Shown: positions 184 to 47,020 of the stretch, in pieces | How positions within the stretch are numbered: the first letter of the stretch is position 1 | How the letters are laid out: the number at the start of each line of letters is the position of its first letter | Origin: a virus | Lineage: Duplodnaviria > Caudoviricetes | Direction: 5' to 3' (one strand) | Virus record (IMG/VR): IMGVR_UViG_3300014205_000181 | Span: 80,549-144,548 of that record | Length of the DNA stretch: 64,000 nucleotides | Translations under genes and position numbers: made by a program | Notes under the pieces: model-generated | Database searches by the model: none | Told to the model about the DNA's origin: nothing | Seen by the model: only the letters and a program-made list of their open reading frames with translations

Positions 184-202
184 ATTACCTCCTTAATATA
201 CC

Positions 203-230
203 TTATCGGCATAATGTATGCAATACTTTA
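203..230 (-). promoter_or_regulatory. sigma28/FliA(SigD)-type promoter
   Basis: TAAA-N16-GCCGATAA, directly upstream of the SD and ATG of the HTH gene. Confidence 0.75.
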
Positions 231-271
231 ACATTATTTTGCTTGTACTGCAATTTAATTTATTAAACGTA

Positions 272-31095: not shown

Positions 31096-32314
31096 CTAAA
31101 AGAAAAACTCATATCGTTGTCTTCCTCTTCAATTATTTTTGCTTCATATAATGTTTCAAAGTATCCGCACCAAAATGCAGAAATTGATTCTACTTTATCT
31201 TTAGAATTTCCAACGATTACTACCGAATAATCATCTTTATAATAGTTTGGCTTATCGACTTTTTCTCTATATCTACTATTTTTTGCTTGATAGTACGAAT
31301 AGTGCTCTTTGATTCTTTTTAAACTTTCTTTCGCATCATCCAGCGAGTCCCAAGAATATCCTACAATGTCGGTTTCTTCATGAGAGCCGAAATAATCACC
31401 TGTTTGATATGTAATTTCTATTGTATACATTATTCCTCCTTCAACTTCTGAATATTTTCTATATGGATAGCTTTCTCTGCTTGGCCTTGTGCGTGATCGT
31501 CAAATACTTTAGAGTTACATTCTGGACAAATACAGTAATTGTTATTAACTGTCCAGCCGTAGTGTTCTTGGTTTTCCCCTAAGAGGTAAGTGTTATCCTC
31601 TTCTTTACACAAGTCACATTTGAGGTGAATTGATACGCCCATTTTGTGGCCTCCGTGAATTTATTTTAATTTAGAAACCCTTACTTGGTTATTCCTATAA
31701 AATTTTTCTACGGTTATTCTTTTATTTATATCTGTACCGTCTGGATACAAACCCAATATTAATTCATTAATTGCAATCATATTATCATAATCTTGAATAA
31801 TATAATCAGAAACATACGCTGCCATTTGAAGTTTTATTAATTTCATTTTAATCTTTAATGAATTTTCGCCAGTTATTCCCAATTAAACCACCTATCCCAA
31901 ATCCAAAAAGAAACATCGAAAACAAGTCCATTTAGTACTATAACTAACATTTACGTTTCTAGTACAAGAATAATCTTTCTCACAAGAAGAACATGTTATT
32001 GTCGCGTCTCCGTCTGCTCCGTCTCCGAAATCAATTTCCCAGGAATCCCGTTCAGTTTTACCACAATGCGGGCAAACTGGTTCAAATGTATATTCTGTGT
32101 CGTATTGGTGCATATTAGTGTCTCAAAAATAAGAATTAATAACGTTTTCGGAAAATTCTTTCATTTCTTCAACATCAAGTATCATTGCATAATGCTGAAT
32201 AATTTGTTCAAAGTCGTGCTTAAAATGATCTTCATTAGAAACAGCTTCTGTGCTTACTTCAAACATCTTCATAACTTTACCGTTTATTAATTTAGTTTCC
32301 ATACTTAATCCTTA

Positions 32315-32368
32315 TTATTCCTCATCGTTATTGTTACCTAGCCATTCGCTGTCTAGGAAGGCTAGGTT
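32315..32368 (-). pseudogene. relic helicase extreme C-terminus (divergent allele)
   Basis: Translates NLAFLDSEWLGNNNDEE*, against the intact helicase end QPFLDSEFMGHSYEED*. Confidence 0.75.
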
Positions 32369-32380
32369 TACAAATAATAT

Positions 32381-32408
32381 TAAAGTTTTTATACTATTAT
32401 TCCGATAA
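32381..32408 (+). promoter_or_regulatory. sigma28-type promoter for tnpB
   Basis: TAAA-N16-TCCGATAA followed by GGTA, as in the three other copies. Confidence 0.65.
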
Positions 32409-32449
32409 GGTATTTATAGAAACGATTCATTCTCTGCAAAAGGATTAAC

Positions 32450-33538
32450 ATGATCAAGTCATTCAAATATAGAATATATCCCAACAAAAGTCAAGAGGAA
32501 ATGTTTAATAAGCATTTTGGTTGCGCTAGATTTATTTATAATTGGGGCCTCAATCGCAAAGTTAAAGAATATGAAGTATCAAAAAAGACCTTGTCTTTCT
32601 TTGATTTAACAAAAGAAACAACCTCTTTAAAATCTGAAAATATATGGTTAAAAGAAGTCAATTCCCAATCGCTTCAAATGTCTCTAAGAAATCTTGATAA
32701 CGCATTTACTCGCTTCTTTAGAGAAAAGAAAGGGTTCCCTAAATTTAAATCTAAAAGAAACAACCAATCTTTCCAATGTCCACAGGCATGTTCAATTAAT
32801 TTTGAAACAAATAAATTAAATATCCCCAAAATTAAAAACATTAAAATAAAAATTGACAGATCGTTTGAAGGTAAAATTAAAACCGTCACAATTAGTAAAG
32901 TTCCTTCTGGTAAATACTATGCCTCAGTTTTAGTTGATGATAGAAAAGAATTACCATCAAAGATTAAAGCAGTTAAAGAGTTCTCTATTGGCGTTGACTT
33001 AGGGATCAAAACTTTCGCAACCTTATCAAATGGAGAAAAGATTGATAATCCACGACATTTTAAGAAATTAGAAAAACAATTAAAGCGAGCACAAAGGAAA
33101 CTATCACGCAAAAAGAAAGGTTCTTCTAATCGAGACAAAACAAGAATTAAAGTTACCATTTTACATGAAAGAGTTACTAATTCACGAAAAGATTTCTTGC
33201 ATAAATTATCTAAAAGACTGATTGACGAAAACCAAGCAGTTTGTCTTGAAAATTTAAATGTCAATGGACTTCTCAAGAATCGCAGGTTAGCAAAACACAT
33301 CCAAGATGCAGGATGGAGAACATTTAAAACATTCTGTGAATACAAGGCAGAATGGTCCGGTAAAGAAGTTAAGACTATTGGACGGTTCGAACCGAGTTCT
33401 AAACTTTGCAATGTATGTGGAGTATTAAACAATTCACTCACCTTAAAAGATCGAGAATGGACCTGTTCTTGTGGAACCATTCATGATCGTGACATTTTAG
33501 CCGCCAACAATATTCTAAATTTCGCATTTCTACCCTAG
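32450..33538 (+). CDS. tnpB: RNA-guided endonuclease TnpB
   Basis: N-terminal KYRIYP..HFGCARFIYN; RuvC GVDLG, CLENL, DRDI.AA.NI; zinc finger C..CG..C.C. Confidence 0.95.
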   Translation: MIKSFKYRIYPNKSQEEMFNKHFGCARFIYNWGLNRKVKEYEVSKKTLSFFDLTKETTSLKSENIWLKEVNSQSLQMSLRNLDNAFTRFFREKKGFPKFKSKRNNQSFQCPQACSINFETNKLNIPKIKNIKIKIDRSFEGKIKTVTISKVPSGKYYASVLVDDRKELPSKIKAVKEFSIGVDLGIKTFATLSNGEKIDNPRHFKKLEKQLKRAQRKLSRKKKGSSNRDKTRIKVTILHERVTNSRKDFLHKLSKRLIDENQAVCLENLNVNGLLKNRRLAKHIQDAGWRTFKTFCEYKAEWSGKEVKTIGRFEPSSKLCNVCGVLNNSLTLKDREWTCSCGTIHDRDILAANNILNFAFLP

Positions 33539-33649
33539 GGTCTAGGGGGAGTTAAGCCTGTGGAGATTGTGTAAGACCTTTAGGCAACGATCTTGGAAGC
33601 AGGAAGTCTTATTGTTTAAGATAGATCATGAAGGCTTGTCCTAGGTTAA
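33539..33649 (+). ncRNA. predicted omega/reRNA 3' portion plus guide (33630-33649)
   Basis: IS605-like right-end motifs ending at TCAT (33626-33629); guide inferred from the established TnpB architecture. Confidence 0.6.
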
Positions 33650-33674
33650 TCGTATTAGTCAAAATTAAACATCC
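33630..33674 (-). pseudogene. relic helicase penultimate segment (divergent allele)
   Basis: Translates GCLILTNTINLGQAF, against the intact NQILITQNLALAQPF. Confidence 0.6.
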
Positions 33675-33676
33675 AA

Positions 33677-33724
33677 TCAAGTTTGCCCAATATACTCACT
33701 TAAATCTCTTGGTTTTCTCGGCAT
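33677..33724 (-). pseudogene. stub of a homing endonuclease N-terminus
   Basis: MPRKPRDLSEYIGQT* resembles the start of IG..FGRLT-type HNH ORFs. Confidence 0.4.
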
Positions 33725-33727
33725 AAA

Positions 33728-35263
33728 TTAATCCTCCTCATATGAATGTCCCATAAACTCACTATCGAGGAACGGTTGCGCCAGTGCAAGATTTTGAGTA
33801 ATTAAAATTTGATTATTCGGGTCACAGTCTCCCTCTCTATTGTATGCGACAGAAGCTCTTAATAATCCGTTCTTTTTCTCAGTAGGAGTGCTCTGCAAAA
33901 CGATCAAAGAATCGAGGTGGGCTAGTTTGGTGAAGGCTTCGGCTATTTGCAGACCGCTAATATTTTTCATACCTGCTCCCGTTCGGTTCGTCTGTGACGC
34001 AGTTAAAACTAAAATATTCCTTTCTGTGGCGATTCTGGAAAGGCTCTTCCAAATCTCATCAAGCTGAAATCTCACGTCATTTCCAGTATTTACAGAACGC
34101 AACACATCCGCGTAATCTACGATCAAAACGTCAGGATAAAAACCACTACTATATGCTAAATTATCTAAATCTGCCTCAATTTCAGCAACACCGACCCCGA
34201 ACTTTGGATAACATTTTAATCGATACCTGTCATTTCCGTACATTAGCCCAAAACCTCGGCTCATATTAATTGCTTTATCGACGGTCAATTCTTCTTTAAA
34301 TTGCGAAAAAAACCAATTGGCCGTTTGGTAATCTGAAGTTCCACGACAAGCAGTACAAACAACATAATCCTTCGGGGCATTTGAAAATTCTGGAATCTCT
34401 CCAACAGAATTAACGAGTGGAATTTTACTGGCTCTAATACTTTTAGAACATATCCCTAACTGATTTTTTTTACAATCAAAGCAACTAATTTCATATTCTT
34501 TTGATTCATCGCCTTGTCCAGTAATCATTTTAAGATCACGGTAATTAATCTTAGTGGCGGACATTTCTAGGTTCGTCTCAAAAACGCGTAGCCTGTTCAT
34601 TCGAGCAACCAAGCCCAAAAAGTGCAGCATCCAGGTCTTGCCGCACTTTGGTGGTGCCATGATCGCAATCAACCTCCCTTTTTCCGGCTTAATTAAAGTA
34701 CCTAATGGACCAGGAATGGTAAATAATATATCTTCTACTTTTGCCTTAAACGTCTCCTTGATAAAATCAGCATCATGAGGATTTACGCAACCAGAAGTCA
34801 ATTCCGTTACTTTTCTATGATTCCTAATTTGTTTTTCTACTTCTTCTATTTGGTCAAGTTTAGCATAACTTGAGATATTATCAGCTAATTTGATATACGA
34901 TTGTTTCTTAAGATATGGTATAGCTTGTTCAATGAAATATTTACTATTCCTTTTTTCTCCTTCTTCAATGAACTTATTCGATAGATTTTCAAGTAGGTCT
35001 TGTATAATCTCTGCATCTTCTGCTTGCAATTTACCTTTTTTAGTATTAAAAATATCCTGAATATATTTACCAGGGCTTGACTTATAATTATTATAATACT
35101 CTTGAATCCAAAGGAATATTTTGCGGATATGAGGGGTATCAAAATATTCTGGTTTGGCAATGGGTAGAATTGCTTTACAAAAATCATCATCGATTATGAG
35201 ATTGATTGCTATATTTTTTTCTGATTCTTGGTCGATCTTACGTCCACTAATTGAAATTGCCAT
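33728..35263 (-). CDS. DnaB-like replicative helicase
   Basis: Walker A APPKCGKT, LEM, VDYAD, TASQTNR; Cys-rich insertion. Confidence 0.9.
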   Translation of the reverse strand: MAISISGRKIDQESEKNIAINLIIDDDFCKAILPIAKPEYFDTPHIRKIFLWIQEYYNNYKSSPGKYIQDIFNTKKGKLQAEDAEIIQDLLENLSNKFIEEGEKRNSKYFIEQAIPYLKKQSYIKLADNISSYAKLDQIEEVEKQIRNHRKVTELTSGCVNPHDADFIKETFKAKVEDILFTIPGPLGTLIKPEKGRLIAIMAPPKCGKTWMLHFLGLVARMNRLRVFETNLEMSATKINYRDLKMITGQGDESKEYEISCFDCKKNQLGICSKSIRASKIPLVNSVGEIPEFSNAPKDYVVCTACRGTSDYQTANWFFSQFKEELTVDKAINMSRGFGLMYGNDRYRLKCYPKFGVGVAEIEADLDNLAYSSGFYPDVLIVDYADVLRSVNTGNDVRFQLDEIWKSLSRIATERNILVLTASQTNRTGAGMKNISGLQIAEAFTKLAHLDSLIVLQSTPTEKKNGLLRASVAYNREGDCDPNNQILITQNLALAQPFLDSEFMGHSYEED

Positions 35264-44985: not shown

Positions 44986-46014
44986 TTACACATCAAAATA
45001 TGGGCAAGACCTATTATTGCCTTGAATTTTATTTCGCTCAATACAAGTTGATTTCTTAAACCATAAATCCTCCAAGAAATTATTTACACCTGCCATGTCA
45101 ATCCCATCCGTTTCTTTATTTGAAAAAGAACAAGGATGAAATACACCATTTACATCGATATAAGAGCTAAAAGATGCACTTTCGCAAGGCTCAATAGACT
45201 GTTCAAAATGTTTCAAAATACCCCAATCTCTAAACATATCCATCAATTTATTTGCACCACAAGAATCACAGCCATATCTTATGTCATTGAATAAACAGTA
45301 CTTGACAATATGGCTAAATTTTTCAGTACTCAGTTTGTGGTAATTAGTCCCACGACCTTTCTGTTTTAGAGAAAGAAAAACAATCGCATTTAATTTCTCA
45401 AGTCTTGGATCACTCTTTATATCTCTGAGTGTTTCTAGCGTTTGTCTATAAGTTTCTTCGCTGATGAGCATATGCACATTTATTTGGGTCATACCTTTAT
45501 CAGTCAATCGTTTAACGGCATTGTAACAAATATTTTTATCCGCATAGCGAGAAACCGCAACTGCTCCACACAGAGAAGAAAGTTTATCTACAATATCGTC
45601 CGTCAATCTATCGCCGTTTATTGTGACATTAGGGATAATTGTATTTTCTCTACAGTATTCCATCATCTTCCATAATTCGTCTGAGACATCTACATCGCCA
45701 ATTCCAAATGCCGTTTGCGTAAGTAGGTGAATGTTGTTATATTTAGGAAATTTATCAATAATACTCTTGAAAGTATCAAATAACATGTGTTTTCCGTTAG
45801 ATGTATTGGACTTATAACAGTGCTGGCAGCCAAAACTACAAATGCTAGATGCCTCTAAATCGAGAATAAAAGGCCCATACGGAGAATATTCGGGATCGAT
45901 GCTTTTTTTCTCTCCCCATACTTTTGTATTTCCATTTTCCATATTAAAATCATAATTAACATCCGAACTTCTAAAAAACTTTTTATTTTTTTCTATAATA
46001 ATAGTCGGCTTCAT
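44986..46014 (-). CDS. radical SAM protein with SPASM/twitch-like C-terminus
   Basis: CSFGCQHC; CES...YIDVNG..HPCSF...CP. Confidence 0.9.
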   Translation of the reverse strand: MKPTIIIEKNKKFFRSSDVNYDFNMENGNTKVWGEKKSIDPEYSPYGPFILDLEASSICSFGCQHCYKSNTSNGKHMLFDTFKSIIDKFPKYNNIHLLTQTAFGIGDVDVSDELWKMMEYCRENTIIPNVTINGDRLTDDIVDKLSSLCGAVAVSRYADKNICYNAVKRLTDKGMTQINVHMLISEETYRQTLETLRDIKSDPRLEKLNAIVFLSLKQKGRGTNYHKLSTEKFSHIVKYCLFNDIRYGCDSCGANKLMDMFRDWGILKHFEQSIEPCESASFSSYIDVNGVFHPCSFSNKETDGIDMAGVNNFLEDLWFKKSTCIERNKIQGNNRSCPYFDV

Positions 46015-46792
46015 ATAAGCACCATCCCTTTGTATTTAAGGTTTTATTTTTATATCTTTCATGAATAATTTTAGGGTCAAACACTTTATTTACATATCTT
46101 TTTAGAGAGGTATAAGATAAACCATTTTCTTTACAAAACCTTTTCACTTCTCCCTTAACCTTTATTATATCTCCGCTTGGCGAAACAAATACCCATTCTT
46201 TCGCATTTGGGTTTTTGAAACCTTGGGTATTATTCCTACAAATCTCTTTTAGCCTTTTAGATTTCTCCTGTCCGTGCAATTCATCAAATTTTCTATGATC
46301 GCCATAACGAGGATTCCCACTACCCTTCAACCTATCCTTGCGCCTTTTCTTACCTTCTTCCGAATTATACCCAGAAGTAGGATCTTTACACCTCAATTTA
46401 TTTGCTTCTCCTATTTTTTTGATATATTGATTTGTTTCTATCGGAATCATCGTATATCCGGTTGGGACCATTCTTCTGTAAATTTGTTAATGGTCCTTTT
46501 TTATCTTTTAGCGTCCCAATTTCATTAATTAGTTTAGCCTCTATCTCATATGCTCTATATTCACTTAAATTTGTTTTTAACTTAACTATCTTGGGAGTAA
46601 GGCCGTCATTAAGGATAGATCTGATTTTATTGTCTTTTATAAAATTTTTATTTTGTTTTAAATTTGATTCATGAAGATGTTTTTATACCTGTAACCCTTA
46701 CCTTTCCCAACATAAAAAATTTCTGGAGGATCTTTTCTAGGATCTAAATAAGCGTAAACATAAGACTCTCCCATATCGCTAGGAATAATCAT
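45983..46792 (-). pseudogene. GIY-YIG homing endonuclease with two compensating homopolymer frameshifts
   Basis: YVYAYLDPR..FYVGKG, then (shifted frame) HL...AYEIEAKLI..IG....GPLTN, then G.GNP.YG and NUMOD-like tail. Confidence 0.75.
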
Positions 46793-46814
46793 CGTATTGT
46801 TACCATAATAAAAT

Positions 46815-46931
46815 CTAAAAATCATTTTTATCTTTTCCCCATCTATCAAATTTTCCCGTAACCATATTAAAATCGTAATTGTAATCTTCTGACCTGAATT
46901 GTTTTACATTTCTATTAATTTCAAGTTTCAT
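46815..46931 (-). pseudogene. orphan N-terminus of a radical SAM allele
   Basis: MKLEINRNVKQFRSEDYNYDFNMVTGKFDRWGKDKNDF* aligns with the rSAM start (KKFFRSSDVNYDFNMENGNTKVWG). Confidence 0.8.
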
Positions 46932-47020
46932 TTTGTTCTCCATAGTAAATTGTATAATTAATTTAACCCCCGTATTCAACACCCACAACTTACTAAACTA
47001 CACCCAATAAGTCAAGATAA

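Follow-up and report, generated by a model that had tools for sequence, protein, structure and literature searches.

The window analysed here is a stretch of 64,000 nucleotides from a virus of the Caudoviricetes (IMG/VR record IMGVR_UViG_3300014205_000181), in which a tnpB gene encoding a predicted RNA-guided nuclease lies close to the gene for the replicative helicase. It makes up the final 64 kb of a contig of 144.5 kb (C1, 35% GC) that is binned in a 3.7-Mb, 301-contig metagenome-assembled genome (MAG) with a completeness of 90.9%. The gene content of C1 is that of a large phage, with a DnaB-type helicase, a dCMP deaminase and radical-SAM enzymes among others. The sole public sequencing run that contains the phage DNA is a landfill metagenome, probably the one from which it came, with no RNA run listed. 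Comparison with the INPHARED phages by blastn gave weak matches to tnpB, and no relative of the window phage.

The locus is a transposase-free, phage-adapted TnpB–omegaRNA cassette, comprising a phage promoter, tnpB and the omegaRNA. Of a second helicase allele (allele B) a short 3′ relic remains, and the cassette sits inside it, directly downstream of the intact, divergent helicase gene (allele A) and the stump of an HNH gene. Its component parts are as follows, in order of position within the window.

32315–32356, minus strand: left part of the allele-B relic; the last 13 codons (LDSEW and eight more) and then a stop
32357–32371, plus strand: junction piece of 15 nt; a partial second copy of the target, ending in TTTAC (32367–32371)
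32372–32449, plus strand: left end, taken up by a phage-type promoter and 5′ leader, with TTAAAGT at 32380–32386 and CCGATAAGGTAT at 32402–32413; no TnpA-type hairpin
32450–33538, plus strand: tnpB; 362 aa, IS200/IS605-type predicted RNA-guided nuclease with intact RuvC triad and zinc ribbon
33500–33629, plus strand: omegaRNA scaffold and right end, overlapping the 3′ end of tnpB; conserved stems, terminal hairpin at 33606–33622, ending ...AGATCAT
33630–33649, plus strand: predicted guide template of the omegaRNA; 16–20 nt directly 3′ of the right end, starting GAAGGCT and antisense to the relic codons
33630–33685, minus strand: right part of the allele-B relic; 15 convincing codons (33630–33674), possibly 19, ending ...LGQAF
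33677–33724, minus strand: stub of an HNH homing-endonuclease gene; 13 homologous codons (33686–33724), two junk codons and a stop
33728–35263, minus strand: intact DnaB-type replicative helicase (allele A); 511 aa, Pfam DnaB_C and DnaB, the resident functional copy

The TnpB cassette

The protein encoded by tnpB matches three Pfam domains, HTH_OrfB_IS605, OrfB_IS605 and Cas12f1-like_TNB (E = 6e-19, 4e-29 and 2e-19 respectively). It scores 427.6 bits with the NCBIfam model IS200_TnpB (cut-off 425), while the IS607_TnpB model falls under its cut-off. ISDra2 TnpB aligns with it over the full length (phmmer E = 1e-78, residues 3–359), including the catalytic motifs. The RuvC residues D183, E267 and D348 and the zinc ligands C320, C323, C339 and C341 are invariant in an alignment with ten homologues (A1). 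The loss of RuvC residues and the truncated C-terminus that mark TldR-like, nuclease-dead TnpB proteins are not found, both the triad and the zinc ribbon being intact. The second zinc knuckle (residues 339–341) has the form CxC, which is kept in the phage subclade (P0001–P0016) and not in the remoter homologues of A1.

The closest relative of the window gene is a sister cassette on a 3.7-kb groundwater contig from a related phage (L012), whose TnpB is 80% identical in amino acid sequence. Between these two copies dN/dS is 0.11 at dS = 1.36, and on this comparison tnpB is therefore judged to be under long-term purifying selection, maintained without TnpA. A search for Y1 (HUH) TnpA (PF01797) found none in the 3.7-Mb MAG, with control genomes positive. 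tnpB is present as a single copy in the MAG, and 40 genomes related to the MAG contain no TnpB. The nearest cellular copies, in methanogens and Candidate Phyla Radiation (CPR) bacteria, are at most 57% identical. The five closest copies inspected (80% and 63–67% identical) are all located among phage-like genes, without an adjoining TnpA. A subterminal left-end hairpin is present in neither the window cassette nor that of L012; the z-scores for folding of the left-end DNA are +0.99 and −0.85 respectively, compared with −6.4 and −6.5 for the canonical elements L105 and L109. The absence of host copies, of TnpA and of a left-end hairpin means that the cassette is not a recent TnpA-mobilized insertion.

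The left end of the cassette carries instead two boxes, TTAAAGT and CCGATAAGGTAT, separated by ∼17 nt. This two-box motif has eight copies on C1, seven of which lie directly upstream of the ribosome binding site and ATG of phage genes, and in the remainder of the MAG it occurs at chance frequency. The copies are found at window positions 198–240 (minus strand), 32372–32413 (plus), 35588 (minus) and 60568 (minus), and at C1 positions 3410, 10568, 18204 and 55855. It is common to the window and L012 cassettes. From its distribution the motif is probably a phage-specific class of promoter, and since it stands ahead of seven phage genes and at chance level elsewhere in the MAG, the cassette would be wired into the phage's own transcription. 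A likeness of the minus strand of the promoter region to helicase residues was rejected as coincidence, as the same promoter is found at seven unrelated loci. There is also a sigma-70-like match at 32367–32395 on the plus strand (TTTACA, 17 nt, TATACT; 10 of 12 positions), which overlaps both TTTAC and the phage promoter.

The omegaRNA overlaps the 3′ end of the coding sequence. A consensus fold calculated with RNAalifold from an alignment of 15 related elements (A2) has 19 predicted pairs, of which 16 are accompanied by compensatory changes. All 15 elements terminate in the same way, with the GAAGCAGGAA box, a covarying hairpin and a short end motif, and in pairs of copies from archaeal genomes the homology breaks off exactly past this right-end motif. 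No Rfam family was matched in a scan of 31500–34500. A right end at 33610, where blastn homology with L012 stops, was considered and rejected, as comparison of the multiple elements revealed the covarying terminal hairpin and the conserved end motif. The comparison of the 15 elements and the archaeal copy pairs places the right end at 33629 (...TCAT), so that the guide template begins at 33630.

The cassette thus corresponds closely to the original prediction. That had described a solo tnpB with intact RuvC D/E/D residues as the lone convincing plus-strand gene, and tnpB is one of just two plus-strand open reading frames (ORFs) in the window that reach 110 aa, against 53 such ORFs on the minus strand. 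It had placed the guide just past TCAT, as the comparison of elements does, and had claimed the absence of tnpA, which extends to any Y1 TnpA across the MAG. A recent tnpA-mobilized insertion with host copies had been named as what would speak against it, and this is not what is found.

The helicase relic, the guide and the junctions

The two parts of the allele-B relic are separated by the cassette. When they are joined, the resulting 28 codons rebuild the C-terminal motif of the helicase family, which is conserved in at least 13 homologues and without exception in the close ones, and the junction falls in the middle of this motif. The relic contains no stops or frameshifts. On the 144.5-kb contig, the non-self sequence most similar to the joined relic is the intact helicase's C-terminus (E = 3e-4). 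Homologues of the intact helicase are 52–62% identical to it, with the C-terminal motif in common.

The predicted guide lies within the right part of the relic, reading antisense to its codons. At the homologous site in the intact helicase gene, 12 of 20 positions match the guide, the mismatches including guide positions 4, 6, 10, 11 and 13, and the adjoining pentamer is TCGAG. On these grounds the resident helicase is not a predicted target. No second match to the guide is present on C1, and the MAG has no other match with up to three mismatches beside a pentamer resembling the transposon-associated motif (TAM). A search of IMG/VR with the exact 16-mer of the guide gave three hits, all of them chance matches without extension. 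It had been proposed from the sequence that the flanks of tnpB join into a second helicase C-terminus, that the guide represents this non-self allele and that its mismatches to the phage's own allele are too many for cleavage. The restored family motif bears out the first of these claims, and the position of the guide within the relic, together with its 12/20 match to the resident gene, argues for the other two.

Between the relic and the intact helicase is the HNH stub, a further part of the original prediction that has been upheld. The sequence 33686–33724 is identical at 33 of 39 nt to the start of a gene in a related groundwater contig (L015:4182–5060), which encodes a 292-aa free-standing HNH endonuclease (PHROG_374, E = 2e-73); Pfam detected no HNH domain in this 292-aa protein, whereas PHROGs did. 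In L015 this gene comes directly after the helicase. It is absent from L014 (L014:7530–7534), where a conserved small gene comes next. Such a gene, present in one relative and missing from another, behaves as free-standing homing endonucleases do; in the window, deletion has left just the start of the HNH gene. With the gene in L015, its absence from L014 and the stub here, the site past the helicase is therefore a landing place for selfish nucleases. There is no tnpB after the helicase in either L014 or L015, and in L012 the cassette is located at the deaminase instead. These data allow a history in which TnpB may have replaced the lost HNH enzyme.

The left junction contains a part of the target for a second time. 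The 7-nt sequence GAAGGCT is an exact direct repeat at the two junctions (32357–32363 and 33630–33636), and the 15-nt junction piece corresponds to target positions 1–7 and 14–18, with 6 nt missing between two CT dinucleotides. IS200/IS605 transposition leaves no target duplication. The expected absence of a target-site duplication is thus not what is seen, there being a 7-nt repeat that can be extended to positions 14–18 with a 6-nt gap.

The TAM is ambiguous, the sequences pointing to two candidates. TCTAG (32352–32356) would precede the target in uninterrupted allele B. TTTAC directly precedes the window cassette, and canonical elements of the clade have TTTAT or TTTAC directly before their left ends; at the corresponding position L012 has TCTAT. 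Given its overlap with the sigma-70-like match, the constraint on TTTAC could be that of a −35 box and not of a TAM.

Related loci

The L012 cassette is antisense to the phage genes, and lies beside the dCMP deaminase. Its right flank (L012:2262–2321, minus strand) contains an open frame of 20 codons starting with Met, which on C1, in L014 and in L015 alike matches the deaminase N-terminus best. An intact, divergent deaminase (L012:547–933, minus strand) flanks the cassette on its other side, and the L012 guide matches it at 10 of 20 positions. The guides of the sister cassettes differ from one another, each matching its own flank. As read from sequence, then, both of the close cassettes take their predicted guide from the relic of one core-gene allele and lie beside an intact copy that mismatches it. 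The original prediction had pointed to other phages as a place to look for a solo tnpB with a guide matching a neighbouring core gene, and L012 provides such a case with its dCMP-deaminase relic.

The window contains a second locus of comparable form (44986–46988, minus strand). Here a GIY-YIG gene (45983–46849) lies between a relic N-terminus (46815–46988) and an intact radical-SAM gene (44986–46014). The GIY-YIG gene is apparently in two ORFs, 46658–46849 and 45983–46471. To judge from the gene order, this is the same architecture of relic, nuclease and intact copy as that of the tnpB locus, built by a classical homing endonuclease.

A phage-like contig (L098:4001–6437) contains a tandem pair of tnpB genes. 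The start of a metallophosphoesterase-like ORF falls within the right-end flank of the first gene, and the second tnpB interrupts this ORF further on. Relics were also sought automatically beside the elements of L096, L098 and L099, with an uninformative output dominated by self-hits.

Possible function and origin of the cassette

TnpB retains transposons by cutting the empty site. The best fit to the present locus is non-restorative RNA-guided (intronless) homing, or marker exclusion, with a linked immune allele, a reading we hold tentatively and rate at somewhat short of an even chance. TnpB would be expressed from the phage promoter, and the 3′ end of its transcript would be processed to the omegaRNA, with the relic sequence from 33630 onwards as the guide. 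In a co-infecting phage that carried a guide-matching sequence and a usable TAM, either at the 3′ end of its helicase gene or in the same relic, TnpB would cut ∼15–21 nt into the target. Repair of the break off the TnpB-bearing genome would then copy in the cassette and co-convert the linked, mismatched helicase. The resulting job would be that of a free-standing homing endonuclease, performed with an RNA guide. In favour of this reading are an intact nuclease and covarying omegaRNA kept by selection in the absence of TnpA, the phage-type promoter, a predicted guide equal to the relic beside a mismatched resident allele, the recurrence of the layout in L012 and at the GIY-YIG gene, and the HNH gene that varies among relatives at this site.

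Under this scheme the preferred reading of the incomplete second target at the left junction is as the footprint of a homing event. A target beside TCTAG would have been cut ∼18–20 nt in. The right end would have been repaired by homology with the guide-side flank of the donor, and the left end, with target positions 1–18, would have been joined by TT microhomology to the TTTAC and left end of the donor. A deletion of 6 nt would afterwards have disabled the new self-target. The end of the duplicated target (position 18) falls inside the zone in which ISDra2 TnpB reportedly cleaves (Karvelis 2021).

A number of points weigh against homing between phages. In any IS605-type TnpB the guide is the element's own flank by construction, and the match between guide and relic does not therefore prove function by itself. 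The expectation that relatives would carry the relic or guide sequence in intact helicase genes was not borne out in the collections searched; the sequence was not found in such a gene among 81 homologues from a set of 5.8 billion proteins, nor in IMG/VR, the JGI metagenomes or the GTDB genomes. The JGI metagenomes were searched with two degenerate codon patterns (joined relic and right relic; no hits with either), and IMG/VR and the GTDB genomes with a shorter codon pattern (no hits). The window phage group is thinly sampled, the closest helicase being 62% identical, so that the failure to find a target-bearing helicase is weak evidence. Contigs from the landfill run are equal to the window, with the occupied site only and no empty-site joint. 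The canonical TTTAT or TTTAC of the clade stands against the TCTAG of uninterrupted allele B, and if the last position of the TAM is strict allele B would escape cutting. Lastly, the L012 cassette has no clear target duplication; a degenerate repeat of the target at its left junction was judged too weak and was not used.

A broader form of the proposal is that these cassettes act as a natural RNA-guided ‘home-and-rescue’ drive. A TnpB without TnpA would cut one allele of a core gene (the helicase here, the dCMP deaminase in the sister phage) and would spread with a linked copy mismatched to its guide, taking over the sites of protein homing endonucleases and leaving a scarred footprint of its target. 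We regard this generalization as possible but on the unlikely side.

The main rival is that the locus is a recombination scar with a passenger, which has perhaps three chances in ten of being correct in our estimation. Recombination between diverged phages, either illegitimate or through short homology, would have brought in the cassette and its short flanks, perhaps after the HNH enzyme had made a break. The guide would then be whichever flank came with it, and TnpB, though maybe active, would have no anti-phage role and would simply mark the boundary of an exchange. The HNH stub shows deletion or rearrangement at this very spot, nuclease genes are described as sitting at exchange boundaries (Barth 2023, as cited in PMC13565253), and a target-bearing phage was not found in the collections searched. 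A mere passenger fits less well with a tnpB and omegaRNA that have remained intact under purifying selection over dS = 1.36 without TnpA, and that have a dedicated phage promoter ahead of them. Nor would it account readily for a layout that recurs at another gene in L012, or for a relic that fits the family motif without stops or frameshifts.

It is improbable that this is an ordinary IS200/IS605 insertion, in which TnpA acting in trans would have inserted the element 3′ of TTTAC, in a dispensable relic with a small tandem duplication already in place, and TnpB would perform only classic restorative homing. TTTAC is exactly where homology with the L012 element begins, canonical members of the clade have TTTAT or TTTAC there, and the protein belongs to the NCBIfam class IS200_TnpB. 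Against this, Y1 TnpA is missing both from the MAG and beside the close phage copies, there is no left-end hairpin for TnpA to bind and the element is single-copy. Such an insertion would moreover require a prior in-frame duplication of 15 nt in the most conserved motif of the helicase, which none of ∼20 homologues has. It is more improbable still that TnpB was recruited to some other phage function (RNA-guided attack on a host element, satellite or plasmid, or gene regulation) with the match to the relic incidental: the phage promoter, the long-term conservation and the precedent of TnpB domestication in TldR (PMC10705468) would suit this, but the RuvC triad is intact, unlike that of TldR, the MAG offers the guide no further match of the kind sought, and each sister cassette has a different guide that matches its own flank.

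If the cassette homes between phages as proposed, it would combine features of several known systems. The window protein is of the same family as ISDra2 TnpB (IS200/IS605; Karvelis 2021; structures 8bf8, 8exa and 8h1j), with the same RuvC triad, and in both the flank supplies the guide of an omegaRNA that derives from the right end and the 3′ end of tnpB. Unlike ISDra2 the window cassette has neither TnpA nor a left-end hairpin, the phage promoter replacing the left end; its second zinc knuckle is CxC where that of ISDra2 is CxxC; neither of its candidate TAMs is TTGAT; and it is located in a virus, flanked by a partial duplication of the target. In transposon retention and on plasmids, homing by TnpB is an established process (Meers 2023, PMC10055086), where the guide targets the empty site and the occupied copy repairs the break, as is suggested here. 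Non-restorative homing by TnpB between plasmids or phages has been proposed, the phage-to-phage case on theory only (2026 review, PMC13565253), and the TnpA-independent spread on plasmids described there follows the same logic. What differs from known TnpB homing is the setting in a lytic-type phage, the presumed target at the end of an essential gene, and the linkage of a mismatched replacement gene to the nuclease.

The free-standing homing endonucleases of phages (T4 SegF, SegB and Mob, with intronless homing and marker exclusion) are likewise encoded between conserved genes, and the present proposal shares with them an attack on the neighbouring gene of rivals, a resistant allele of its own and the co-conversion of flanks. 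They differ in that recognition is by protein rather than by an RNA guide, and in that self would here be told from non-self also by the splitting of the TAM from the target. In competition between co-infecting phages, PhiPA3 makes use of an intron endonuclease that cuts an essential gene of its relative (Birkholz 2024, PMC11620839). The proposed role of TnpB is similar in that a selfish nuclease would be directed against the essential gene of a co-infecting relative, but the PhiPA3 enzyme is a protein-guided, intron-encoded HNH nuclease with experimental proof, whereas the present case would be RNA-guided, as read from sequence. We found no paper in the literature on phage TnpB cassettes with relic-allele guides.

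The locus provides a concrete case for TnpB acting between co-infecting viruses, something suggested so far only on theory (PMC13565253). An intact nuclease without a transposase stands here under a phage-type promoter, with a defined guide whose target in an essential gene can be reconstructed, a linked allele predicted to be immune and a displaced HNH gene at the same spot, and a sister cassette repeats the layout at another gene. If the proposal is correct, RNA-guided nucleases would drive gene exchange and competition among phages, the great frequency of TnpB in phage genomes would be accounted for, and the cassette would be a natural counterpart of engineered cleave-and-rescue drives.

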